DNA of 64,000 nt from Heterodontus francisci (Eukaryota). Location of the stretch: assembly GCF_036365525.1 (NCBI RefSeq), contig NC_090377.1:104932907-104996906 (forward strand). Direction: 5' to 3'. The notes below the pieces were generated by a model, which was not told the origin of the DNA, ran no database searches, and saw nothing but the letters and a program-made list of their open reading frames with translations. Both the position numbers and the translations under genes were made by a program. Shown here in pieces: positions 2,790 through 64,000 of the stretch (positions are counted from its first letter, which is position 1; each line of letters opens with the position of its first letter).

Positions 2790-3925
2790 ACAATAACTTG
2801 CATTTGTATAGTGTCTTTAACATAGAAAATGCCACAAGGCACATCACGGAGATGTAAGGAAAACAGGTGCAGAGCCCAAAAAGAACTGAATGAGAAGTAA
2901 TCAAAAAAACTTGGTTAAAGTGCTAGATTTTGAGCTGATGAAGGTAGAGAAGCAGAGTGTTTTAGAAAGGAAATTCCTGAGTGGGTAAATGGCAGCTGCC
3001 AGAGGTGAATCAAATGGAGGTGGGATGCACAAGAAGCCAGAGTCAAAGGAACAGAGAGTATGGGGAAAGAATTCTGGTCTGGTGAGCTCATGGAGCAATT
3101 TAAACATTGAGATAAGAATTTTATATTTGGGGTGCTGGCGGACCAGGAGCCAATATAGGTCAGCGATGATGTGTGATGAGCGAACGTGACTGAGTGAAAG
3201 ATAGGTTAAGGACACAGTGAAGTCTTAAATGAGCTAAAGCTTATGGAGGGTGGGTTTGGGGAGTGGTTGGGAGATGGAAGATCAGCCAGGGAGAATAAGA
3301 ATAATCAATTCTGTAATCAGTGAAGCAGGAATGAGAGTTATAGTGGAGTTGGTGATGTTTTGGAGGTAGAAATAGGCAATGTTTGTGATGGAGAATATAT
3401 GAGGCTGGAAGCTCAGTTCATTGTCAAATAATGCACCAAGGTTGCAAACAGGCTGATTCAGCCTGAAAACAAAAGACAGTAAGGGGGATTGAGTTAGTGG
3501 CAAGGGTTTGGAGTCAATGATGATGTTTTTAGTCTAACCAGGGTTTAGCTGGAGGAAGTTATGGGTCATTCTAGATTGGATGTTAGGCAATCAGTACAGA
3601 GGCAGTGGAGAGAATGAGAGAAGTGATGGAGAGGGAGAACTGAGTGTCATTGATGGATATGTGTGGATTCTTCAAATTATGTCACTAAGGCACATCATAT
3701 AGATGAAGGGGCAATTGATGGATCCTTGGAGACCTGAGGAGTTTCAAAATAGGAAGGGAAATCATTAGTAGAAATCAATTGCATGTGATTAGATAGGTAA
3801 GAGTTGAAGTAAGTGACGGTAGTCCATCAGTACCGGAGAACAGAGAAGTGTTGGAGGAGGATTGTGAGATTGACCATGCCAAAGTCTGTAGAGAAGTCTA
3901 GGTGGCTAAGGAAGGATAATGCTTC
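2790..3925 (-). mobile_element. L2 LINE 3' remnant
   Basis: Minus-strand translations NLGALFDNELSFQPHI, LYWLLVRQHPKYKIL, LDFSTDFGMVNLTILLQ; L2-type tail near 2790. Confidence 0.8.
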
Positions 3926-5520: not shown

Positions 5521-6900
5521 TCCTGAATCCCACTCAGACCCCCTTAGCCGATCTTCAACAGACCTCTTTGCCAGCAAGCTGTTGCGCCTTGGCGTTTACA
5601 TTATAATGGAGCTCAATACTGGGGGCACTTCAGGCCTCACCATTCAGGCACAGTGAATAAACTCTGTGCTGATGTTCATATGTTGTGATCCTGATCCGTT
5701 AGTTTACTCAAGGGCAGTAGGTCAATTGTTTTAATTTTAGCTGAGGAAGGAAAAATCCCAGAGGTAACAAGTTTCATAGGATCAGTTTTTTTTTATATCC
5801 CATCTATGCACCCCTTATTTGTTAATCAACAAGATTTGTGTAAGCTGTCTTTGGACATCGACCTCCCTGTTTAAAAAAATAATCTCTGACGACATATTGG
5901 AATTTCCCAAATGGGAGTGATTTTCTTGCAGTCAGCACAATTTCAATTATTTTCACTCAGTGATAGTCCCAGATGCTAAGAATCTTGATAACCAAGGTAA
6001 GCGACATAAAATGTGCTTTAGCCTAGTTAAACTTGTTTTGCAGTATTTTAACACGTTAATTTAAGGTGTTTGCAAGATAGTAAAAAAAGTCGGAAAAGTG
6101 TTCCGAGGAGTGATGTAATTTTTTGAACCAATACTTAAATTAATTGTGTAAAAATACAGGAATCAAGGCTTTTATGGAGAAAAGGGAAGCACAATGCAGC
6201 ATTTGTTTGTTTCACAGATGGTGTCAAGATGATGATTAAGTCACTGTTGAAACAATAATTATTGACATTGTGGCGCTGTTATAACATTCAAATCCACAGT
6301 AAGTGTGGTAATTTCAAATGTAAGATGTTCTTTGCATGCTCTTCCAATTCCTGCAGCTGGAGCAAACTGCTCATTTAAGTTTGAAATAGAGCTTATTTGA
6401 TCTATTAGAAAAGATCAATTAAGTAGGGATATGAGGACGTGGCTTGGGGGCAATCTAATACCAGTAATCTCCAATTCATGCATAAAAGTTCTTCCTTCAC
6501 TAGTGAGTGCATTAATGCTTGGCCTCATTTTGTGCCAAAACTGCCACTGATTTGACTAAAATATGCCTGCTCATCCCTTTCACAATTTGTACCTTTTTTT
6601 ATTGGACTATCCCAAAGGACAAAAACCATAATTATCAAAATTTTAGCTGTTTTCACACAGTGGTGATTGTAATCCTGAATAATTTTAATAAACATGACAG
6701 GTAACAGAAAATTTGCTTTTTGGCCTAATTAAACTTTTTTTTACCCTTATCCGTATATTACTTTAAGAAAGATCGTTACATTTCCTGATCACTGATATTA
6801 CATAATACTATATATTTTTTAAAATTTCAGTTTTGACATACCTTTTGTACTGATGAACATAACATTTAGCTATCCTTGTTCTCACACCGCGGGGAGGCAG

Positions 6901-6975
6901 TGGCGTAGTGGTATCATCACTGGACTAGTAACCCAGTGACCCAGGGTATTTCTCTGGAGACATGGGTTCGAATCC
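6901..6975 (+). promoter_or_regulatory. Internal type-2 RNA polymerase III promoter (tRNA-derived, possibly tRNA-Thr AGT)
   Basis: A box TGGCGTAGTGG 6901-6911; B box GGTTCGAATCC 6965-6975; hairpin TCACTGG/CCAGTGA with CTAGTAA anticodon-like loop. Confidence 0.8.
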
Positions 6976-7199
6976 CACCACAGCAGAAGGTGGAATTTGA
7001 ATTTAATTAATAAAAACCTGGAATTAAAAGCTAGTCTAATGATGGCCATAAAACCATTGTCGATTGTTGTAAAAACCCATCTGGTTCACTAATGTCCTTT
7101 AGGGAAGGAAATCTGCTGTCCTTACCTGATCTGGCCTACATGTGACTCCAGACCCACAGCAATGTGGTTAACTCTTACATGCCCTCTGAAATGGCCTAG

Positions 7200-10089
7200 C
7201 AAGCCACTCAGTTGTACCTAACCGCTACGAAGTCAATAAAAAGGAATGAAACCAGATGGACCACCCGGCATCGACCTAGGCACCGGAAACGGCAACAGCA
7301 AACCCAGCCCTGTCGACCCTGCAAAGTCCTCCTCACTAACATCTGGGGGCTTGTGCCAAAGTTGGGAGAGCTGTCCCACAGACTAGTCAAGCAACAGCCT
7401 GACATAGCCATACTCACGGAATCATACCTTGCAGACAATGTCCCAGACACTGCACTCACTATCCCTGGGTATGTCCTGTCCCACCGGCAGGACAGACCCA
7501 GCAGAGGTGGCGGCATAGTGGTCTACAGTAGGAAGGGAGTTGCCCTGGGAGTCCTCAACATCGACTCTGGACCCCATGAAGTCTCATGGCATCAGGTCAA
7601 ACATGGGCAAGGTAACCTCGTACTGATTACCACCTACCACCCTCCCTCAGCTGATGAGTCAGTACTCCTCCATGTTGAACATCACTTGGAGGAAGCACTG
7701 AGGGTGGCAAGGGCACAAAGTGTACTCTGGGTGGGGGACTTTAATGTCCATCACCAAGAGTGGCTCGGTAGCACTACTACTGACTGAGCTGGCCGAGTAC
7801 TAAAGGACATAGCTGCTAGACTGGGTCTGCAGCAGGTGGTGGGGGAACCAACACGAGGGAAAAACATACTTGACCTTGTCCTCACCAATCTGCCTGCCGT
7901 AGATGCTTCTGTCAATGACTGTATTGGTAGGAGTGACCACCGTACAGTCCTTGTGGAGCCGAAGTCCCGCCTTCACATTGAGGATAGCGTCCGTCGTGTT
8001 TTGTGGCACTATCACTGTGCTAAATGGGATAGATTTCAAACAGATCTAGCAATGCAAAAATGGGCATCCATGAGGCGCTGTGGGCCATCAGCAGCAGCAG
8101 AATTGTACTCGACCACAATCTGTGACCTCATGGCCTGGCATATCCCCCTTCTACCATTACCATCAAGCCAGGAGACCAACCCTGGTTCAATGAAGAGTGC
8201 AGGAGGGCATGCCAGGAGCAGCAACAGGTATACCTCAAAATGAGGTGTCAACCTGGTGAAGCTACAACAGAGGACTACTTGCATGCCAAACTGCATAAGC
8301 AGCATGCAGTAGACAGAGCTATGCAATCCCATAACCAACGGATCAGATCTAAGCTCTGCAGTCCTGCCACATCCAGTCGTGAATGATGGTGGACAATTAA
8401 ACAACTAACTGGAGGACGTGGCTCCACAAATATCCCCATCCTCAATGATGGGGAAGCCCAGCACATCAGTGCGAAAGATAAGGCAGAAGCATTTGCAACA
8501 ATCTTCAGCCAGAAGTGCCGGGTTGACGATCCATCTCAGCCCCCTCCTGAAGTCCCCAACATCACAGATGCCAGACTTCAGCCAATTCGATTCACTCCGC
8601 GTGATATCAAGAAACGACTGAAGGCACTGGATACTGCAAAGGCTATGGGTCCTGACAATGTTCCGGCAATAGTACTGAAGACATGTGTTCCAGAACTTGC
8701 CGCACCCCCAGCCAAGCTGTTCCAGTATAGCTATGACATTGGCATCTACCCGGCAATGTGGAAAATTGCCCAGGTATGTCCTGTACACAAAAAGCAGGAC
8801 AAATCCAACCGGACCAATTACCGCCCCATCAGCCTACTCTCAATCATCAGTAAAGTGATGGAAGGTGTCATCAACAGTGCCATCAAGCAGCACTTAACCT
8901 GCAATAACCTGCTCAGTGATGCTCAGTTTGGGTTCCACCAGGGCCACTCAGCTCCTAACCTCATTACAGCCTTGGTTCAAACATGGACAAAAGAGCTGAA
9001 CTCAAGAGGCGAGGTGAGAGTTACTGCCCTTGACATCAAGGCAGCATTTGACCGAGTATGGCATCAAGGAGCCCTAGCAAAACTGGAGTCAATGGGAATC
9101 AGGGGGAAAACACTCTGCTGGTTGGAGTCATACCTAGTGCAAAGGAAGATGGCTGTGGTTGTTGGAGGTCAGTCATCTGAGCTCCAGAACATCACTGTAG
9201 GAGCTCCTCAGGATAGTGTCCTCGGCCCAACTATCTTCAGCTGCTTCATCAATGACCTTCCTGCAATCATAAGGTCAGAAGTGGGGATGTTCGCTGATGA
9301 TTGCACAATGTTCAGCACCATTCGTGACTCCTCAGATACTGAAGCAGTCCGGGTAAAAATGCAGCAAGGCCTGGACAATATCCAGGCTTGGGCTGATAAG
9401 TGGCAAGTAACATTTGTGCCACACAAGTGCCAGGCAATGACCATCTCCAACGAGAGAGAATCTAACCATCTCCCCTTGACATTCAATGGCATTACCATTG
9501 ACCAGAAACTGAACTGGAGTAGCCATATAAATACCATGGCAATAAGAGCAGGTCAGAGGCTAGGAATCCTGCAGCGAGTAACTCACCTCCTGACTCCCCA
9601 AAGCCTGTCCACCATCTACAAGGCACAAGTCTGGAGTGTGATGAAATACTCTCCACTTGCCTGGATGGGTGCAGCTCCAACAACACTCAAGAAGCTCGAC
9701 ACCCCATCCAGGGCAAATCGGCCCCCTTGATTGGCACACCATCCACTAACATTCACTCCCTCCACCACTGATGCACAGTGGCAGCAGTGTGTACCATCTA
9801 CAAGATGCACTGCAGCAATGAACCAAGGCTCCTTAGACAGCACCTTCCAAACCAGCGACCTCTACCACCTCGAAGGACAAGAGCAGCAGATGTATGGGAA
9901 CATCACCACCTGCAAGTTCCTGTCCAAGTCACACAGCATCCTGACTTGGAACTATATCGCCGTTCCTTCACTGTCGCTGGGTCAAAATCCTGGAACTCCC
10001 TTCCTAACAGCACTGTGGGTGTACCTACCTCACAAGGACTGCAGCGGTTCAAGAAGGCAGCTCACCACCACCTTCTCAAGGGCAATTAG
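7200..10089 (+). pseudogene. Disrupted endonuclease-reverse transcriptase ORF
   Basis: APE: TNIWGL, DIAILTESYL, RGGG, GDFNVHH, LDLVLT, SDH; RT: NYRPISLL, QFGF, LDIKAAFDRV, GAPQDSVLGP, FADD; stops at 7785 and about 8385, frameshifts near 8150 and 9705. Confidence 0.9.
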
Positions 10090-12395
10090 GGATGGGCAAT
10101 AAATGCTGGCCTAGCCAGAGACGCTCACATCCCATGAATGAATAAAAGAAAACTTAGGCAGAAACCAATTTCCTTCAAAGTTCCATAAATTTCACTGTCC
10201 CTAGAATATAGTTGCCTAAACAATGAATGTGAAGATGTTTAGTAGAATTACAGGCACCATGCTCCAATAAAAAAATACATCTAGATCCCCTTAGTAATCT
10301 GAAACCTTGGAAAATGTACGACCTACTTTACTGACTATGGGCAGAAATTGAAATGCTTCATTGACCACTGCCATTTTCAATCTTTAATCAAAACCCTAAT
10401 TTGTATCATGTAATCTTTTCTAAATAATGTGCCAAATGTGTAGCCAAATAGTTGTTCTTCCCTTTGCAATTCCTTCATAGCAAATAATAATTTCCTGATT
10501 ACCGAACACTATCTAAAGATATGATTATTTTTTGTCTCAAGCTATGTTTTTTTTGGTGAAAATATATGTTTAAAAAAACCTATTTCGAACTTTAAAAAAC
10601 AGTTAGGTGTTTGTTAGCCTGAATTGCTGAGCTTGAATTACTTGGTCTCCTGGCATGATATTGTAAAGGGTTGGGGCTTTGATCCAAGGGATGTGCTTCA
10701 CTGGTTGCAATTAAAATTCTCGTCAGGGAGGATGTGTTGCCAACTCCCAACATGCCCTGAAACATGCAGCAATATCCTTTATAATGGTCATGAATCTGAC
10801 CACCGCCTCTCTGCACCACCCCCTCCCCACCGTATCCACCCAGCCTTCTAAATATTTCTGTGGTTGCTGAGCTGTTAACAATACAGCAAGAAAAATTTTC
10901 ACTTACATTAGCTTCTGACCCAGCCGAGGGAATTGGGTTTATATTTTTTGTCTGTGAGAGGGCTGAATCAGGCTACAATAGAATCACCATGCCATTTGAG
11001 AATACGAATTAAGCTGTGTAGTGTATCAGCTGGTAAGATTGTTTGGAAATGGCTATTTCTGAATTAGGAAGACCGTTTAGAACATAAGTAATTTTTTAAA
11101 AAACTATCTCCAAGGACAATGAGTTGCATTTTTAGTCTAACTGACGGAAATGATTTATTTTTCAGAGTACAGCTGATTTTTCAAATTAGAAAACGTGAAA
11201 GATCTGTTTGAAAGGTATGCTCCTCAATTCCTTCTGTACCATGATAATGGAGAACAATTGTTAAATCATTCACTGCCTTTAAAAATAAGGTACTATATAT
11301 TTGGTTGTTCATTGTACAGCAGTTTGTATTTAATGGTGAATATGTCTGTGATTGCATTTTCAAATCTGGAAGACTATATCCTGTCGGAGAGAAGTGACTC
11401 TAATCCTCATTATATTATTTTGTCAGGTTCACACATACCGTGTCAGACATCAGTGAGAGACCAAACGCTGTGAGAAACAAAATGGAGTATTGCATAGTTA
11501 ACTGGATATTGTAGGCTGATTATAAAGTGGCTTGTTACATATTAATTTTAAACATCTTCGTAAACCATAATGTTACCACCATAATTCAGTCAAGATGTTG
11601 GATTGCAATATGAACATTTTCAATTTGTTTTATGTAATTTTTGCCTTTCTGAAGTACTAAAATATTAAGCTAACTTGTATCAGATTGCCTGCATTAGAAA
11701 GATCTTGTTTTTCCTAAATGCAAAACATTTAATTTCCCATTACTTTCCATAGATCAGTTGAAGCTTCTGATTCTCGGTAGAAACATTCCCCTATGTCATT
11801 TTTAGAAATGTCCAATGGTCTTTGCTTGTTTGTGCCAAATTAAGGATTGTGATTTTTTTTTCCCCCTCTCGGCCCACCTCCCCTAATAAGTTTGGTATGG
11901 CTTATCATCTCTTTCCCTCTACTCCAAAATCGAGATATTCTACTTTTCCAATCTAGTTGTGCCTCTGCCTTGCAGCATTATGCATATGTAGATGAGAACA
12001 GGATTGAGTTCAGTTATGATGATCCCATAATCAAAGAACCATAAAATGAACATATAGGTGAGGTAAAAGAATTGCTTGAAACTGTACCATTGAATGAATC
12101 AACATTTTTTGAGAAAGCTGTAGAAAAGTAGGGAGGGGAAAATGGAATTTTATACTAATGCATTTAGCTGCATGTCATAAACAATAGCCGAGAAATTATT
12201 GTTAGCATTGTCAATGGACAATCAGTTAACACATTCTAATACTTCCTTCTGTGTTCTATTTTAGTGCATGTATTAACCCATGTGTTAATCCAGTGAAGAC
12301 TTGCTTAAAATAGTGGGTGTGGGAATTTCATACAAACATGCTAAACGTTCATTTGCTAATATTGGCGACCGTAATCTTTAACCTTTACCAGAAAT

Positions 12396-17569: not shown

Positions 17570-17905
17570 ACTGCCAAGGCTCCTTCAACAGCACCTTCCA
17601 AACCTGCAACCTCTACCATCTAGAAGGACAAGGGCAGCAGATACATGGGAACACCATCACCTGCAAGTTCCCCTCCAAGCCACACACCATCCTGACTTGG
17701 AAATATATCGCCGTTCCTTCACTGTTGCTGGGTCAAAATCCTGGAACTCCCTTCCTGACAGCACTGCTGGTGTGCCTACACCCCAAGGACTGCAGTAGTT
17801 CAAGAAGGCAGCTCACCACCACCTTCTCAAGGACAATTAGGGATGGGCAATAAATGCTGGCCTAGCCAACGATGCCCACATCCCATGAATGAATTTAAAA
17901 AAAAA
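17570..17905 (+). mobile_element. 5'-truncated 3' end of the tRNA-headed LINE family
   Basis: Highly similar to 9822-10150 (PRLLQQHLPNLQPLP...SWNSLP). Confidence 0.9.
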
Positions 17906-35129: not shown

Positions 35130-38100
35130 GAATGAGTGGCTGCAGGGCATTCTGAGGGAGGGAGAGTGAAAGCCAGAGGCCGTGGTCCGTATCATCACCA
35201 ATGGCATAGGCACAAAGAGGGATGAGGGCCTGCGGCAGAGTATAGGAAGCTAGGACAGAGATTGAAAAGCAGGACCTCAAAGGTAGTAATCTCCGGATTA
35301 TTCCCAGTGCCACATGATAGTGAGTACAGAAACAGGAAGATAGAGCTGATGAATACGTGACTGGAGAGATGGTGCAGGAGGGAGGGCTTTAGATTCCTGA
35401 GGCATTGGGGCTGCTTCTAGGGGAGATGTGATCTATACAAGCTAAACTGGTGACACCTCAACAGGACCAGGACCAATATCCTTACAGGGGGTTTTGCGGG
35501 TGCTGTTGGGAAGGATTTAAACTAGCTTGACAGGGGGATGGGAATCTGAGAGTAGATTCAGAAGGAAGAGAAGAAATGTTCGAAATGGAAGGCAGAAAAT
35601 TAGTAAGTGTGTTTGGAATGCAGAGGAAACAAAGGCGAGAGAATAGACAACAAGGGAGTTTGGCGGTGCTAAATGGTGTATACTTAAATGCAGGAAGTTT
35701 ACGGACTAAGACAGATGAGCTCAGAGCACAGATTGACACAGGGGAGTATGATAGTATGGTGATTACTGAGACATAGCTGAAAGAAGGGCAGAAATGGCAC
35801 CTCAACATTCCTGGTTACAAGGTTTCCAGATGCGATAGAGAGAGGATTAAAAAAAGGAGAGGGAGTCACATTATCGATTAAAGACACAATTATAGCTGTG
35901 AGGAGGGATGATATGGGAGAAGGATTATCAAATGTGGCCATATGCGTTGAACTGAAGAACAAGAAAAGGCAATCACACCACTGAGAGTGTACTATAGATA
36001 CTATAGATCCCCAAACAGTCAGAGGGAGATATGTAGGCAAATCTCTGAGAAGTACATCAACAATAGGGCAGTAATAGTGGAGGATTTCAACTACCCTAAT
36101 ATTAACTGAGATAGAATTAGTGTAAAAGGCACAGAGGGAGCAGAGTTCTTAAAATGCATTCAGGAAAACTCTTTTAGCCAGTATGTAGCAAGCCCAACAA
36201 GAGAGGAGGCAGTTCTGGACTTAGTTTTAGGGAATGAAGCTGGACAGGGTGAAGAGATATCAGTTGGAGAGCATTTTGGCAGATGTGATCATAATTCAGT
36301 TAGATTTAGGGCATTATGGAGAAGGATAAAGATAGAGTAGGAATAAAAGTTCTCAATTAGGAAAAAGCTAATTTTGCGAAGCTGAGGCGTGATTTAGCTA
36401 AGGTGGACTGGAAGCAGCTACTTCAAGTGCCAGATGAGTGGGAGGTATTCAGGAAGAGATAGTGAGGGTTCAGAACAAGTATGTTCCCTTGAAGAAAAGG
36501 GGTGGGACTAACAAATTCAGAATCCCTGGATCTAAAGTGGCTTAAAGGAGAGAATAAAGGAAAAAGGGAAGCTTATGACGTTACAGGGGCTCAGTACTGC
36601 AGAAATCCTAGAGGAGTATTAAAAATGTAGAGATGAAATTAAAAAGGAAATTAGGAAAGCAAAGAGAGGACATGAAAAAATATTGGCAAGTAAAATCAAG
36701 GAATAACCAAAGATTTTTTTATAAATACATAAAGAGCAAGATAATAACTAAAGAAAGAGTAGGGTCTGTTGGGGACCATAAGGGTAACTTGTGTGTGGAA
36801 GCGGAGGACGTTGGTATGGTTCTTAATGAATACCTTGCGTCTGTTTTCACAAAGGAAAGGGCTGACAGAGACATTGCAATCGGGGGGAGGAATGTGAAAT
36901 ATTAGATGAAATTACCATAGTTGGAGAGGAAGTATTAAGGGGTTTAACTTCTTTGAAAGTGGATAAATCCCCAGATCCAGATAACATTTATCCTAGGCTG
37001 TGAAGCGAAGCAAGAGAAGAAATAGTGGAGGCTCTGACCATCATATTCCAATCCTCTCTGGCTGTAGGCTTGGTACCAGAGGACCTGAGGACAGTTAGCA
37101 TTGTGCCATTGTTTAATAAAGGAGAAAGGGATAGACTGAGTAATTACAGGCCTGTCAGCCTAACCTCAGTGATGGGAAAATTATTGGCAAAAATTCTGAG
37201 GGACAGGATAAATCTTCATTTAGAAAGGCACAGTTTAATCAAAGACAGTCAGCATGGATTTGTTAAGGGAAGGTCGTGTCTGACTAACATGATTAAATTT
37301 TTTGAGGAGGTAACAGGGAGGGTCAATGAGGGTAGTGCATTTGATGTAGTTTATATGGATTTTAGCAAGGTTTTTGATAAGGTTCCACATGGCAGACTGG
37401 TCATGAAAGTAAAAGCTCATGGGATCCAAGGCAAAGTGGCAAGTTGGATCCAAAATTGTCTCAGAGCCAGGAAGGAAAGGGTAATGGTGGATGGGTGTTT
37501 TTATGACTGGAAGGCTGTTGCCATTGGGGTTTCGCAGGGCTCAGTTACTAGTTCCCTTGCTTTTTGTGGTATATATAAATGATTTGGTTTTGAATGTAGG
37601 GTACATGATTAAGAAGTGTGCAGAAAATAGAAAAATTGGTCGTGGAGTTAATAATGAAGAAAAAAACTGTAGAGTGCAGGAGGATATTACTAGACTAGCC
37701 AGATGGGTGGAAAAGTGACTAATGGAGTTCCATCTGGAGAAATGTGAGGTAATGCATTTGGAGAAGGCTAACAAGGCAAGTGAATACGCAATAAGTGGTA
37801 GGATACCGAGAAGTGTAGAGGGACAGCGGGACCTTGGAGTGCATGTCCACAGATCCCTGAATGTGTTTGGGCAGGTAGATACAGTGGTCAAGAAGTAATA
37901 TGGGATACCTGCCTTTATTAGCCGAGGCATAGAATATAAGAGCTAGGACTAGGAGGCTATGCTGCAACTGTATAAAACACTAGTTAGGCCACAGCTGGAG
38001 TACTGCATGCAGTTCTGGTCACTGTACTATAGGAAAGATGTAATTGCAGTAGAGAGGTACAGAGGTGATTTAGTTATGAGGAAAGATTGGATAGGCTTGG

Positions 38101-50335: not shown

Positions 50336-51408
50336 GGGCTGAATTTTCATTCCAGGGCCTTGATCCCGACACCGGGCTGAATTCTGGGTCGGAATTCCAG
50401 ACGTGGCCGTGGCAGGATGCTGGAAAAGATTTTTGAGGACCCGGCCAATTAAGAGGCCGCCATCGGGAGCCCCATCCAATTAAGGACAGCGAGTGGGCAA
50501 TGGGAGCCCCTGATGCTCTGGGCAGCTGACAGTTTCACCGGGCATGGTAGGCACTGCCACTGTAGGTGGGGGACCGTGAGGGCACCTCAAGAGAGAAGTG
50601 CCCTTTGAAGACCTATAAATGATACAAATTATACAGCGGCCACAGCTGCCAAACCATCATAGAGGAGGGGGAACCCCTCCACAGGATGGCCAGCGGCCAT
50701 GGCTGAGTCCCTTGCAGTTCAGTGGACCCTGCTGGGCTGCTTTGCAGGATGCCACCATGCCATCCACAGGCTCCAGCCATATCAGGGGACCCGATTTTCC
50801 AGGCGGTGTGTGAAGACTGCCTTCAGTTGGTACTTTAATTGGCCTAATTGGGAAGGTCGTTGCATAGTGGTAATGTTACTGGACTAATAATCCAGAGCTC
50901 AGGCTAATGCTCTGGGGACATGGGTTCGAATCCCGCCATGGCAGATGGTGAAATTTGAATTCAATTAATAAATCTGGAATTAAAAGCAAGTCTAATTGTG
51001 ACCATGAAACCATTGTCGATTGTTGTAAAAACCCATCTGGTTCACTAATGTCCTTTAGGGAAAGAAATCTCCCGTCCTTACCTGGCCTGGCCTACATGTG
51101 ACTCCAGACCCACAGCAATGTGGTTGACTCTTAAAATGCCCTCTGAAATGGCCTAATAGTCCACTCAGTTGTCAAGGGCAATTCGGGATGGGCAACAAAT
51201 GTTGGCCTAGTCAGCGACGTCCACATCCCACAAACAAATAAAAAAAAAATTGGCTACCGACAGCTGACGGGCTGTCACCACTGCGCCCCCACCTCCCTGA
51301 AAATAGGCTGGAGGTGGGAACTTGCTGGCAGACCGGCACAGTGGCCGGTAGTACGAAATTGCTAGCAAGCCCAACTTCAAACCTGCTTCCAGGATGAAAA
51401 TTCTGCCC
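50336..51408. mobile_element. GC-rich TIR element with AAT TSD
   Basis: GGGCTGAATTTTCAT / ATGAAAATTCTGCCC; AAT at 50333-50335 and 51409-51411; removal restores CR1 GGACACAATACTCC. Confidence 0.9.
50852..51248 (+). mobile_element. tRNA-headed SINE sharing both ends with the 6891 LINE
   Basis: Aligns to 6893-7214 then jumps to 10076-10150; AATTGG TSD. Confidence 0.9.
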
Positions 51409-53089
51409 AATACTCCAGTTGAGGTTGAACCAGGGTTTTGTAAAGGTTCATTATTAGTTCCTTGCTTTTGTGCTCTATATTTATAAAGCCCAGGACCCCT
51501 ATGCTGGCTTAACTACTTTGTCACCCTTCCTGCCACCTTCAATGATTTGTGCACATATACCCCGAAGTTCCTCTGCTGCTTAATCCTTTAGTTTCCATTG
51601 CCTCTCCTCGTTCTTGCTACAAAAATGTATCTCATCACACTTCTCTGCATTAACTTTTGTCTGCCACGTGTCCACCCATTCCACCAACCTGTCTATATCC
51701 TCTTGAAGTCTGATATCATCACAGTTCCCAATACTTCCAAGTTTTGTGTCATCTGTAACTTTTGAAATGGTGCCGTGTATCCAAGTCTAGGTCATTAATA
51801 TATATCAAGAGAAGCATTGGTCCCAGTATGGAACCCTGGGGGAACCCCACTATATACCTTCCTTTAGACAGAAAAACTACTCTCTATTTCCTGTCACTCA
51901 GCCATGTATCAAAGCTGCCACTGTCCTTTATTATTCCATGGGCTTTAGCTTTGCTGGCAAGCCTATTATGTGGCACTTTATGTAATGCCTTTTGGAAGTC
52001 CATGTACACCGCAACAACTGCATTACCCTCATCAATCCTCTCTGTTACCTCATCAAAGAACACAATCAAGTTTGTTAAACACGATTTGCTTTTAAAAAAT
52101 CTGTGCTGGCTTTCCTTGATTAATACACCTTTGTCCAAGTGCCTGTTAATCTTGTCCTGGATTATCATTTCTAAAAGCTTTCCCACAGCCAAGGATAAAC
52201 TGACTGGCTTGTCATTGCTGGGTTTAACTTTACACCTTTTTTTGAACAAGGGTGTAACGTTTGCGAGTCTCAACAGCAAGCCTTTCTAAAACCTCATCTT
52301 CATCAATTTTTAGCCCATCCTGTGTCTCAACTGCCTCCTCTTTGACTTTGACTTTGACTTTATTTCAAATGTGACAGAGACGTCTGATGACAGTCATGTT
52401 TCATGTCATTGGAAAGGCAAAAAGATGATGAAGGATTTTTCCTGCATTGAAAGCTGTAATTTATATGTTTGTTTTCCCTTTCATTCTGTTTGCTTAACAG
52501 CCCTGCCAGTCATGTTACTATTTGAATTGTCAGGATTTTCCAACTTGCTTTAAAGAAACACATGCTTGCAGGAAGTAAATATTGCTCCCAAGTGTAGCAA
52601 TGTCTAAGGTAAAGATGCTTAGATCAAATCCTGTGCTGTGGACCAATTTGTGCTTACTTTTAAGTTAATTTTCTTTTAAACCATCTTTCTTTTTATGCCC
52701 TTATATCTGTCACCTCTGCAGTGTTTTGTTTGAGCAGGACAATAGCACCTTCTGATGAATTTCCTATCACCACCTCTCATTTCAGCTAATGTTTTACAAA
52801 ATGTCACGATGCTCTCTTTCTGCCACCACCATTGATGAAATATTCCACTGCAAAGTTGATAGGAGCTGATGAAACCGAAGTTTAGTTTGAAGATAGCATT
52901 CGATTACAGACCTATCAAGGGAGCTTAATTCTGTATTGCAGCCATTTTAAAAACGACCAAATTTATGACAGGCTTCAAAATGTGGGCCCCATATATCCTT
53001 GTATGTTCTGCCAGACACTTGCCATAACTCCGGAGAGGTGTCCCTGCAACAAAAAGGGTTCCTTTGTGGAGTTCCTCCTAACTCTGGCG

Positions 53090-53705
53090 GTGAAGTAATA
53101 GTGATATATTTCCAAGACAGGATAGAATGTGGATTGGAGGGGAACATGCAGATGGTGGGGTTTCCATGCACCTGCTGCCCTCGTACTTCTTGGTGGTAGA
53201 GGTTGCAGGCTTGGAAGATACTGTCGGAGGGGCCTTGACGAGTTGCTGCAGTGCATCTTGTATATTGTACGCACTGCAGCCACAGTAGTGGAGGAAATGA
53301 ATATTAATTTTATTTATTTATTTAAGATGGTAGATGTGATGCAGGCAAACAGGTTGCTTTGTTCTGGATGATGCTGAGCTTCCTGAGTGTTGTTGGAGCT
53401 GCACTCATCCAGGCAAGTGGAGAGTATTCCATCACACTGCTAACTTCTGCCTTGTAGATGGTGGACAGGCTTTGGGAAGTCAGGAGATGAATTACTCACA
53501 ACAGAATTCCCACTCTTTGACCTACTTGTATAATCACAGTATTTATGTGACAGGTCCAGTTAAGTTTCTAGTCAATGGTAATGCCCATGATGCTGATGTT
53601 GGGGAATTCAGCGATAGTAATGCTTTTGAATATTAAGGGGAGATAGTTAGATTCTCTTTTGTTGGAGATGGTCATTGCCTGTGACTTGTGTGGCACATAT
53701 GTTAC
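53090..53705 (-). mobile_element. Older internal fragment of the tRNA-headed LINE family
   Basis: AAVRTIYKMHCSNSSRPLRQYLP; corresponds to about 9410-9975. Confidence 0.8.
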
Positions 53706-54074
53706 TTAAGTTAAATATTACTTAAATGTTACAATTGTGTGGAACCAGGAGTGGGAATTCCCTGTGCTGAGAGTTCCACTTGCCCGATCCAACCTGGAAC
53801 AGAATAATAAGACTAGATTTTTAAAAAATTCTAGCTTGGTCTTCTTCCACAGGTGCCCATCGGGCACTTAGTTGAGTCTTACGAGAGGGGTTGTGGAGAG
53901 TGGGAGGCTAGCCTGGGCATTCCCCACTTCCTGATGTTGGCCAAGCACCATATTTCTCAGCAGCTTGGGGCAAGTGAGTACTGAAGATGCTGCAGTAATG
54001 TTGTTTGTGTCCACTGCCGCCATGCTAATTAGGTGACATCCCAGTAATCCTAGTGGTTTTGGTTCGATACCACA

Positions 54075-56184: not shown

Positions 56185-56586
56185 TTTTTTTTATTTGTTT
56201 ATGGAATATGGGCGTCGCTGGACAGCATTTATTGCCCATCCCCAATTGCCCTTGAACTGAGTGCTTGCTAAGCCATTTCAGAGGGCATTTAAGAGTCAAT
56301 CACATTACTGTGGGTCTGGAGTCACATGTAAGTCATATGTAGGCCGGACCAGGTAAGGACGGCAGAATTCCTTCCCTAAAGGACATTAGTGAACCAGATG
56401 GGTTTTTACAACGATCGACAATGGTTTCATGGTCATCATTAGACTAGCTCTTTAATTCCAGATTTATTAATTGAATTCAAGTTTCGCCATCTGTCACGGT
56501 GAGATTTGAACCCATGTTCCCAATGTACTAGCCTGGGCCTCTGCATTGCTAGTCTAGTGACGTTACCACTATGCCACCTCTTCCCC
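56185..56586 (-). mobile_element. tRNA-headed SINE, second copy
   Basis: Reverse complement of 50852 copy, same junction CACTCAGTTCAAGGGCAATT. Confidence 0.9.
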
Positions 56587-57320: not shown

Positions 57321-59840
57321 AAAGAACAAAGAACAGTACAGCACAGGAACAGGCTATTCGGCCCTCCAAGCCTGCGCTGATCTTGATGCTTGCCTAAACT
57401 AAAACCTTCTGCACTTCCGGGGACCGTATCCCTCTATTCCCATCCTATTCATGTATTTGTCAATATGCCTCTTCAACGTTGCTATCGTACCTGCTTCCAC
57501 CACCTCCCCCAGCAGCAAGTTCCAGGCACTCACCACCCTCTGTGTAAAGAACTTGCCTCGCACATCCCCTCTAAACTTTGCCCCTCTCACTTAAACCTAT
57601 GTCCCCTAGTAACTGACTCTTCCACCCTGGGAAAAAGCTTCTGACTATCCACTCTGTCCATGTTGCTCATAACTTTGTAAACCTCTATCATGTCGCCCCT
57701 CCACCTCCGTCGGTCCAGTGAAAACAATCCGAGTTTATCCAACCTCTCCTCATAGCTAATGCACTCCAGACCAGGCAACATCCTGGTAAACCTCTTCTGT
57801 ACCCTCTCCAAAGCCTCCACGTCCTTCTGGTAGTGTGGCGACCAGAATTGCACGCAATATGCTAACTGTGGCCTAACTGAAGTTCTGTACAGCTGCAACA
57901 TGACTTGCCAATTTTTATACTGTATGCCCCGACCGATGGAGGCAAGCATGCCGTATGCCTTCTTGACTACCTTATCCACCTGCGTTGCCACTTTCAGTGA
58001 CCTGTGGACCTGTACGCCCAGATCTCTCTGCCTGTCAATACTCCTAAGGGTTCTGCCATTTACTGTATACTTCCAACCTGCACTAGACCTTCCAAAATAC
58101 ATTACCTCACATTTGTCCGGATTAAACTCCATCTGCCATTTCTCCGCCCAAGTCTCCAACCAACCTGTATCCTGCTGTATCCTCTGACAATCCTCATCAC
58201 TATCCGCAACTCCACCAACCTTTGTGTCGTCCGCAAACTTACTAATCAGACCAGCTACATTTTCCTCCAAATCATTTATATATACTACAAACAGCAAAGG
58301 TCCCAGCACTGATCCCTACGGAACACCACTAGTCACATCCCTCCATTCAGAAAAGCACCCTTCCACTGCTACCCTCTGTCTTCTATGACTGAACCAGTTC
58401 TGTATCCATCTTGCCAGCTCACCTCTGATCCCGTGTGACTTCACCTTTTGTACCAGTCTGCCATGAGGGACCTTGTCAAAGGCTTTACTGAAGTCCATAT
58501 AGATAACATCCACTGCCCTTCCTTCATCAATCATCTTTGTCACTTCCTCAAAAAACTCAAATCAAATTTGAGGGGCGGCACAATGGCGCAGTGGTTAGCA
58601 CCGCAGCCTCACAGCTCCAGCGACCTGGGTTCAATTCTGGGTCCTGCCTGTGTGGAGTTTGCAAGTTCTCCCTGTGTCTGCGTGGGTTTCCTCTGGGTGC
58701 TCCGGTTTCCTCCCACATGCCAAAGACTTGCTGGTTGATAGGTTAATTGGACATTATAAATTGCCCCTAGTATAGGAAGGTGGTAGGGAAATATAGGGAC
58801 AGGTGGGGATGTGGTAGGGATATGGAATTAGTGTAGGATTAGTATAAATGGGTGGTTGATGGTCAGCACAGACTCGGTGGGCCGAAGGGCCTGCTTCAGT
58901 GCTGTATCTCTAAACTAAACTAAACTAAACTAAATTAGTGAGACACGACCTCCCCTTCACAAAACCATGCTGCCTCTTGCTAATAAATTAATTTGTTTCC
59001 AGATGGGAGTAAATCCTGCCCCGAAGAATCCTCTCCAATAATTTCCCTACCACTGACGTAAGGCTCACCGGCCTATAATTTCCTGGATTATCCTTGCTAC
59101 CCTTTTTAAACAAAGGAACAACATTGGCTGTTCTCCAGTCCTCTGGGACCTCACCTGTAGTCAATGAGGATGCAAAGATTTCTGTCAAGGCCCCAGAAAT
59201 TTCTTCCCTTGCCTCCCTCAGTATTCTGGGGTAGATCCCATCAGGCCCTGGGTACTTATCTACCTTAATGCTTTGCAAGACACCCAACACCACCTCCTTT
59301 TCGATAATGAGATGACTGAGACTATCTGCACTCCCTTCCCTAGGCTCATCATCCACCAAGTCCTTCTCTTTGGTGAATTCTGATGCAAAGTACTCATTTA
59401 TTACCTTGCCTATTTCTTCTGGCTCCACACATAGATTCCCTTCTCTGTCCTTGAGTGGGCCAACCCTTTCCCTCGTTACCCTCTTGCTCTTTATATACGT
59501 ATAAAAAGCCTTGGGATTTTCCTTAATCCTGTTTGCCAATGACTTTTGTGACCCCTTTTAGCCCTCCTGACTCCCTGCTTAAGTTCCTTCCTACTGTCTT
59601 TATATTCCTCAAGGGATTTGTCTGTTCCTAGCCTTCCAGCCCTTACGAATGCTTCCTTTTTCTTTTTGACTAGGCTCTCAATATCCCGCGTTATCCAAGG
59701 TTCCCGAAACTTGCCAAACTTATCCTTCTTCCTCACAGGAACATGCTAGTCCTGGATTCTAATCAACAGACATTTGAAAGACTCCCACATGTCAGATGTT
59801 GATTTACCCTCAAACAGCCGCCCCCAATCTAAATTCTTCA
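57321..59840 (-). mobile_element. Young 5'-truncated CR1 (HER1-like)
   Basis: Long clean frames: NYRPVSLTSVVGKLLE, YMDFSKAFDKVPH, LGPLLFVVYINDL..SKFADDTK; (AAAGAAC)n tail in reverse. Confidence 0.95.
58572..58935 (+). mobile_element. Full-length HE1-type V-SINE nested in CR1
   Basis: GGGGCGGCACAATGGCGCAGTGG head, (CTAAA)n tail. Confidence 0.92.
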
Positions 59841-62092: not shown

Positions 62093-63405
62093 AGGACTAA
62101 CCTCCACTTGGAGAGGCAGGGATTAATCAGGGATAGTCAGCATGACTTTGTCAGGGGGAGATCGTGTCTAACTAACTTGATTGAATTTTTGGAGGAGGTA
62201 GAGGTGTAGATGAGGGTAAAGCATTTGATGCAGTCTACATGGACTTCAGTAAGGCTTTTGATAAAGTCCTGCATGGGAGATTGATTAAGAGGGTAAGAAC
62301 CCATGGGATCCAGGGCAATTTGGCAAATTGGATCCAAAATTGGCTCAGTGGCAGGAGGCAGAGGCTAATGGTCGAGGGTCATTTTTGCGAGTGCTTGCCT
62401 GTGACCAGTGGTCTACCGCAGGGCTCGGTGCAGGGACCCTTGCTGTTTGTAGTGTACATTAATGATTTTGACGTGAATATAGGCGGTATGATAAGTAAGT
62501 TCGGAGATGACGCGAAAATTGGTGGTGTCATAAATAGTGAGGAAGAAAGCCTTAGATTACAGGATGATATAGATGGGCTGATAAGATGGGCGGAGCAGTG
62601 GCAAATGGAATTTAATCCTGAGAAGTGTGAAGTGATGCATTTTGGGAGGACTAACAAGGCAAGGGAATATACAATGGATGGTAGGACCCTAGGAAGTACA
62701 GAAGTGTAGAGGGATCTTGGTGTACTTGTCCATAGATCACTGAAGGCAGCAGTACAGGTAGGTAAGTTGGTTAGGAAGACATATGGGATAATTGCCTTTA
62801 TCAACCGAGGCATACAATATAAGAGCAGGGAGGTTATGATGTAGCTGTATAAAATGCTAGTTAGGCCACAGCTGGCGTACTGTGTACAGTTCTGGTCACC
62901 ACACTATAGGAAGGATGCGATTGCACTGGAGAGGGTGCAGAGGAGATTCACCAGGATGTTGCCTGGGCCGGAGCATTTCAGCTATGAAGAGAGACTGGAT
63001 AGGCTAGGGTTGTTTTCCTTAGAGCAGAGAAGGCTGAGTGGGGACATGATTGAGGTATACAAAATTATGAGGGGAATAGATAGCAAGAAACTTTTTCCCT
63101 TAGCGGAGGTGTCAATAACCAGGGGGCATAGATTTAAGGTAAGGGGCAGGACGTTTAGAGGGGATTTGAGGAAAAAAATTCACCCAGAGAGTGGTTGGAA
63201 TCTGGAAAGCACTGCCTGAAGAGGTGATAGAGGCAGGAACCCTCACAACATTTAAGAAGTATTTAGATGAGCACTTGAAATGCCATAGCATACGAGGCTA
63301 CGGGCCAAGTGCTGGAAAATGGGATTAGAATAGTTAGATGCTTGATGACCGGCATGGACATGATGGTCCGAAGGGCCTGTTTTTGTGCTGTATAACTCTA
63401 TGACT
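62093..63405 (+). mobile_element. 5'-truncated CR1
   Basis: MDFSKAFDKV, PQGSVQGPLLF, VRPQLAYCVQFWSP, tail CTGTATAACTCTATGACT. Confidence 0.92.
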
Positions 63406-63799
63406 GAGTTGAATAATAAAATCCAGTTACCTGTGTCAGTGCATCATAATGATATTTTCTAAACAGACAAGCAATGTGATTGTTCCTGAACTGACAGAAA
63501 TAGTGCAGAAAGGAATTGTATAAGATTAAATTGATATTCTGATTTTTGGCATGTTTATTTTTGAGGAAGGGAGCAACTTTGGAAAACCTGACTATGGGGC
63601 ATTGAATGGACTGTGTTGAGTTTATAATGGGCCAGATTGTAAAAGGAACAGGTTTTATCATCCAAATGGCCTTTTTCGCACTCTTTCGTATTCCTATGTT
63701 CTTGCTGTGAAGTGTGAGGAGTAATTATTGGGTTAACAAGACTGAAACCACTACAGTTGGGATGAGAAACATCAAAAGTGCATCCTTTTTGTCTTTTTT

Positions 63800-64000
63800 T
63801 TAAAATTCATTTCATGGGATGTGGGCATCGCTGGCCAGGCCAGCATTTATTGCCCATCCTTAATTGCCCATGAGAAGGTGGTGGTGAGCTGCCTTCTTGA
63901 ACAGCTGCAGTCCATGTGGGATAGGTAGACCCACAGTGCTGTTAGAAAGGGAGTTCCAGGATTTTGACCCAGCGACAGTGAAGGAATGGCAATATAGTTC
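63800..64000 (-). mobile_element. 3' end of the tRNA-headed LINE family (runs off window)
   Basis: Reverse complement of about 9950-10145. Confidence 0.9.

Follow-up and report, generated by a model that had tools for sequence, protein, structure and literature searches.

On the usual view, RNA polymerase II (Pol II) transcribes LINEs, which encode proteins, whereas SINEs depend on Pol III and are non-coding. The bipartite-LINE SINEs Bov-tA and SINE2_Gav resemble the locus described here in coupling a tRNA head to LINE-derived parts, but in those elements the head has been added to a non-coding deletion derivative rather than to a coding LINE; the available text of the same source holds that SINEs cannot encode protein, and that SINE bodies obtain 5′ parts from RTE and Vingi elements only (PMC5786205). 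It also mentions, in one line and with no claim regarding Pol III, a tRNA-like stretch in RTE-1_DAn, which is the nearest precedent in the literature consulted. The tRNA-Deu SINEs SacSINE1 and LmeSINE1, of a type that occurs in sharks, skate, chimaera and coelacanth, possess a tRNA head, a conserved body and a LINE-type tail, as do the free SINEs found here (a likeness by description only), and are presented in the available text as non-coding passengers of L2-2_CM or CR1-4_DR-like LINEs (PMC5499810). Repeated internal Zenon deletions at 5-bp microhomologies, as seen here, are described for the Persaeus SIDE of lepidopteran Zenon, but Persaeus, in the available description, carries neither a tRNA head nor a Pol III promoter, whereas the deletion product here is a complete SINE (PMC6740152). 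Chimaeras of small RNA and LINE-1 likewise place a small RNA 5′ of LINE sequence; as far as the accessible preprint describes them, they are one-off events at no more than 21 loci, mostly with antisense tRNA halves, and form no propagating family (bioRxiv 2025.02.02.635956). A coding LINE driven by Pol III is not described in the open literature searched.

The family considered here is itself already catalogued, a matter that the original prediction had left undecided. Judged by its motifs, which are found in the published consensuses, and by their first 400 nt, which agree by eye, it is the elasmobranch Zenon (CR1 group) of Stuart et al. 2026 (PMC13343379, available text). The Zenon-1 consensuses of white shark (CarCar), stingray (HypSab), whale shark (RhiTyp), catshark (ScyCan) and dogfish (SquAca) share the same head, body, linker and AUG within that stretch; elasmobranch Zenon-1 elements measure 3244–3314 bp, compared with 3298 here, and, like the present family, are without ORF1 and end in a poly-A tail, such that nothing structural differs in the published material. 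The hagfish and coelacanth Zenon consensuses, in contrast, start without this head in their first 400 nt. The main text of that paper contains no match for tRNA, pol III or polymerase III, and the head, the deficit of T runs, the missing AUG and the SINE derivatives go unremarked there. As Zenons are all described in it as being without ORF1, loss of ORF1 is no evidence for Pol III.

Anatomy of the copy at 6891–10152

The window, meaning the whole 64-kb stretch of DNA analysed, harbours at 6891–10152 a decayed LINE copy of 3262 bp, which, with all of its parts, reads on the forward strand. The element begins at 6891 with a tRNA-derived head (6891–6985), which contains a Pol III type-2 A box (TGGCGTAGTGGT, 6901–6912), an anticodon-like loop, CTAGTAA (6925–6931), and a type-2 B box (GGTTCGAATCC, 6965–6975); the exact A-box 12-mer recurs in 17/34 copies and the exact B-box 11-mer in 20/35. 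A SINE-type body of 230 bp (6986–7215), which may correspond to a Deu domain, follows and is common to free SINEs, the SINE at 50850 displaying 89 % identity to the LINE over family positions 1–323. Next comes an A-rich linker (7216–7245, 47 % A), likely non-coding because its length differences between species, counted by eye, are not multiples of three. A conserved AUG then opens a frame of 46 codons (7246–7386) that is out of the APE frame and overlaps its start. The single APE–RT frame (7200–10089), which in the family majority spans 975 codons between stops and in the window copy is broken, includes an APE domain (PF03372, E-value 2.4 × 10−10, nt about 7338–7769) and an RT domain (PF00078, E-value 1.1 × 10−33, nt about 8792–9496). 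The 3′ UTR (10090–10152) bears AATAAA (10098–10103) and a short A tail, without a target-site duplication, and there is no room for an ORF1 5′ of APE–RT in this copy.

This arrangement agrees with the original prediction, which had proposed A and B boxes with an anticodon-like loop, a body of roughly 230 bp and then directly an APE–RT frame with no ORF1, 3.26 kb in all. The resemblance to tRNA-Thr (AGT) that it also proposed survives only in part. Across the whole 64 kb, ARAGORN calls tRNA-Thr(AGT) at 6897–6985 and one other tRNA-like gene, which begins a related free SINE (50856) and is read as Ile, and the Thr identity is weak. The Rfam tRNA model gives no match to the head at E ≤ 1, nor does any other real Rfam family, and the head is thus tRNA-derived rather than a tRNA gene. 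The copy is dead: two stops (7785 and 8384) interrupt it, and it has lost 1 nt near 8148 and 39 nt near 9492 and gained 2 nt near 9702.

Further remains of the family in the window comprise the last 330 bp of a 5′-truncated copy (17574–17905, forward strand, 92 %), an old internal fragment (53090–53707, reverse strand, 78 %) and the 3′ end of another copy cut by the window edge (63794–64000, reverse strand, 93 %). Fragments of other LINE families, at 26–38 % protein identity, lie at 57650–59278 and 51589–52309 on the reverse strand and at 36902–37564, 62239–63066 and 1223–1594 on the forward strand; two of these families served as the controls for T runs below, one of them being young, with copies 97–98 % identical.

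Head, junction and reading frame across the family

A query composed of head and junction returned 5434 first-look candidates from the 6-Gb genome, and the best 40, which were scored, all span the query at 94–100 %. So as to avoid selection by the head, loci were also picked with three ORF-only queries, one of which gave 4479 first-look candidates. Among the 97 loci so selected (L129 and L130 resemble a duplicate pair), 68 start no more than 15 nt from the head start, 16 inside the head or body and 13 inside the ORF. The 5′ ends cluster 10 nt before the A box, with 37 of 65 near-full copies starting at family position 1 and 53 at positions 1–3. Comparison of the flanks upstream of 29 truncated copies gave six pairwise matches and no common alternative 5′ UTR. 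With regard to a sister family bearing ORF1, none was among the best 40 scored matches, and queries with old fragments gave copies at 82–95 %.

Since SINE and LINE are both very abundant (3893 first-look candidates for a SINE query of the genome, beside the 4479 above), it deserves to be weighed whether, at the window locus only, a SINE landed beside an ordinary LINE or recombined with one. The same junction, however, recurs at dozens of loci that are not linked to one another, older subfamilies and five species have it too, and the SINE tail is absent from it; so local an accident is barely credible, and is ruled out by the 97-locus set and the five-species consensuses. The junction, whose uniqueness to this locus would have undone the original prediction, is instead family-wide, and neither a different 5′ UTR nor an ORF1 is seen in any of the ORF-selected copies. 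Head and junction are real and conserved, and the element behaves like a LINE with a SINE-type promoter.

Target-site duplications were found in 3/35 copies, compared with 2.07 in shuffled pairs, and are therefore at chance level; their scarcity is common in the CR1 group. Eight of 28 full-length copies interrupt another repeat, in most cases to within a few bases, and all eight are among the 12 copies whose flanks are repetitive on either side. This points to near-blunt insertion and indicates that the element moved from head to tail as one unit. Copies that are 5′-truncated with intact 3′ ends are also present. At individual loci, a full-length element has inserted into a SINE copy (L093) or into a fellow member of the family (L069), and four copies display 5′ inversions, as in twin priming (L048, L278, L284 and L287).

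Alignment of 41 copies gives a family majority of 3298 nt with one open frame, and all of the APE and RT catalytic motifs sought were present; a PDB search matched only L1 and R2. No copy among the 41 is intact, the longest open stretch being 460 codons; a few natural intact copies appear in a table of PMC13343379. For 37 of the 41 copies (four misaligned rows were dropped), variants present in at least five copies have a dN/dS of 0.27 (40 synonymous, 27 replacement), whilst private variants have one of 1.09. An older subfamily majority, drawn from 103 of 121 segments that are 6–18 % diverged, has no stop, unchanged A and B boxes and no run of four T (T4), and is separated from the younger majority by 49 synonymous and 28 replacement differences. 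The ORF has been under purifying selection, and its visibility in variants common to copies supports autonomy of the family. The proposal of an autonomous SINE–LINE hybrid is supported by this selection, the catalytic motifs and the family-wide head and junction. When compared with the definition of a SINE2 element, the LINE has the tRNA-derived head with boxes, and is neither short nor non-coding (3.3 kb, 975 codons), properties found instead in its derivatives at 50850 and 56185.

T-run deficit and the transcribing polymerase

The sense strand of the 3.3-kb majority holds 0 runs of four or more T, as against 14 such runs of A, 12 of C and 9 of G. When synonymous codons in the ORF are permuted, TTT runs number 4 where 13.2 are expected (p < 1/3000) and windows with four T in five number 1 where 10.9 are expected (p 0.002), whilst runs of A, C and G are as frequent as expected; T4 runs (0 vs 2.1, p = 0.08–0.09) are not significant alone. 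Synonymous third-position T is used in 0/19 cases before a TT codon, 6/72 before TV and 201/665 otherwise. Oligo-T is the established Pol III terminator (PMC4494074, available text), and a strand-specific purge of T runs therefore fits long-term read-through by that polymerase. The signal rests on the TTT, TT and four-of-five-T counts, of which the avoidance of TT could have another cause.

Two other LINE families in the same genome (30 loci each, 27 % protein identity, T-richer, and assumed to use Pol II) have TTT counts of 39 against 39.2 expected and 28 against 27.5, with 9 and 11 T4 runs, and do not display the Zenon type of synonymous-T avoidance. Of 80 metagenome relatives fetched, 58 have an ORF of at least 500 codons, and 57 of these carry at least three T4 runs; they are T-richer, with a mild TTT deficit (p ≤ 0.01) in 4/58. 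ARAGORN, applied to 58 of the 80, detects no tRNA head, although many are without 5′ ends. One APE–RT relative, on a metagenome contig of 3018 bp (L261), has no T4 in 912 codons (5.5 expected, p < 0.003); it is distant from the family and its 5′ end is missing. Another, L249, has an A-box/B-box-like pair at 3607–3675, roughly 400 nt 5′ of an RT frame that is broken; the pair is probably chance or a SINE because that frame has 17 T4 runs. RNA-labelled runs yielded contigs over all 30 bins of the element, contigs that may hold DNA or intronic RNA. In runs X19 and X20 (metatranscriptome, one labelled coral metagenome) contigs span the whole element, probably because the sample contained nucleic acid of a shark or ray.

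The 3′ ends of the family have short A tails, often after 1–8 T, with no microsatellite tail. Four or more T stand just before the A tail in 14/63 LINE ends, compared with 1/110 internal sites where a T run meets an A run and 24/264 flanks; in examples such as L061, L063, L075 and L093 they lie approximately 45 nt after AATAAA. A T run before the A tail recalls polyadenylated Pol III SINE transcripts. These runs do not rise with age (rho −0.25), and the combined length of T and A stays near 10. They could represent a built-in terminator, whilst the constant combined length fits slippage instead.

An element that kept its head may still be transcribed by Pol II, either from an internal promoter within the head or body or by host read-through, and the avoidance of T runs would then serve to evade U-rich signals for splicing, polyadenylation or decay. 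In keeping with this, the LINE promoters characterised are Pol II promoters (PMC2881922, available text), whale shark copies of the family are described as largely intronic (bioRxiv 443036, available text), and the tRNA-like stretch of RTE-1_DAn comes without a Pol III claim in the text available (PMC5786205); capped RNA would, moreover, be easier to translate. Yet the two control families are without the deficit, the A and B boxes stay the same from one subfamily to the other and can be recognised in five species, 5′ ends cluster 10 nt ahead of the A box, and a ribosome scanning from a cap would encounter nine upstream AUGs, with none in frame. On balance we regard Pol II transcription as unlikely, although it is the strongest of the competing readings. 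Transcription by Pol III in some form, including a variant with divided labour discussed below, is considered likely.

Translation start and the origin of the free SINEs

In both subfamilies the APE frame has no Met until codon 284, which lies beyond APE, a feature that the original prediction had overlooked; the best 60 homologous proteins have a mean of 3.6 Met in residues 2–245, with one having none. The AUG at 7246 is the tenth, nine others occurring before it in the head and body, and its three letters are intact in 80/83, 76/84 and 78/84 rows of family copies. By eye, over the first 400 nt, it is also present in the published Zenon-1 consensuses of all five species, sharks and ray alike, at 31, 31, 31, 27 and 30 nt from the junction; in the stingray consensus its offset to APE motif I is unchanged. 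Eight of 14 substitutions after this AUG in the consensuses fall at third positions of its frame (5 synonymous, of which 3 are CpG-type). The conservation and the third-position bias together weakly favour initiation at 7246 followed by a shift into the APE frame, the alternative being entry at a non-AUG codon. The stretch from 7246 to 7330 is a CpG-rich leader, near-unchanged between sharks and ray; its 85 nt contain 8 CpG, and seven of these coincide with codon borders in the frame that the out-of-frame AUG opens. Neither 7060–7345 of the window copy (z −0.22) nor its head (z −0.29) folds better than shuffles, and no stable IRES-like structure emerged; in sliding folds of the family majority a z of −3.9 is confined to the head, and 7253–7342 gives −1.7. 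A search by eye for patterns of HDV-like ribozyme, IGR-IRES, 2A motif and slippery heptamer gave nothing convincing.

Two free SINEs in the window, at 50850–51248 (forward strand) and 56185–56586 (reverse strand), have the head and body joined directly to the last 80 bp of the LINE. This first form corresponds to family positions 1–321/323 joined to 3219/3222–end (30 loci). A second form, with positions 1–336 joined to 3184–end, gave 10 pattern matches, of which 9 aligned, against 0 for a reversed control; its junction has a 5-nt microhomology, no SINE-only sequence and no duplicated tail. Both forms are exact 5′-plus-3′ deletion forms of the LINE. Fusion would need to have landed exactly on the border between SINE body and tail, whereas internal deletion delivers that border directly, which favours a LINE-first order for these forms; the comparison suggests that the local SINEs derive from the LINE, rather than a SINE having recently fused to it. 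Around ten head letters common to both SINE forms differ from both LINE majorities, pointing to an unsampled or extinct LINE subfamily as the parent.

The LINE enzyme plainly acts in trans on these SINEs, which lends something to a division of labour in which Pol III would make the RNA that is copied and rarer Pol II transcripts, from the same or sister copies, would supply the protein in trans. Such a scheme would account both for the purge of T runs and for the difficulty of translating uncapped RNA. With a protein acting in trans, however, deletion derivatives should win and source ORFs decay, yet purifying selection is seen on shared variants, and the Pol II RNA would still be without an in-frame AUG; we hold this to be rather improbable, and more so than transcription by Pol II throughout.

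The explanation we favour, and consider moderately probable, is an autonomous single-ORF Zenon with a tRNA-derived A/B-box head, whose full-length RNA is likely made by Pol III. TFIIIC would bind the internal boxes, and Pol III would start approximately 10 nt before the A box and read through 3.3 kb because oligo-T stops have been purged. Ribosomes would enter the uncapped RNA internally, close to the A-rich linker; the start would most likely be the conserved AUG at 7246, followed by a shift into the APE frame, and failing that a non-AUG codon. The protein would then use target-primed reverse transcription to copy the RNA that encodes it, with no need of ORF1p, much as Pol III transcripts of the Alu system are reported to retrotranspose without it (PMC2666806, available text), and internal deletions of the LINE would yield ready-made SINEs. 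The conjunction of an autonomous element at least as old as the shark–ray split, a 3.3-kb coding RNA made by Pol III, translation with neither cap nor in-frame AUG (by a frameshift from the conserved upstream AUG or by AUG-free entry), and parentage of the tRNA-Deu SINEs of cartilaginous fishes through internal deletion is proposed more tentatively, as somewhat short of an even chance.

Should this joint reading be true, the conserved SINE body would be the 5′ UTR of a LINE, perhaps one that recruits ribosomes, giving a testable origin to a module whose function is a long-standing question. Deletion of the ORF would constitute a one-step route to the birth of a SINE. A LINE read by Pol III would also provide a test system for cap-independent, and possibly AUG-independent, translation, and a natural 3.3-kb Pol III mRNA, if true, would break the rule that assigns LINEs to Pol II and SINEs to Pol III.
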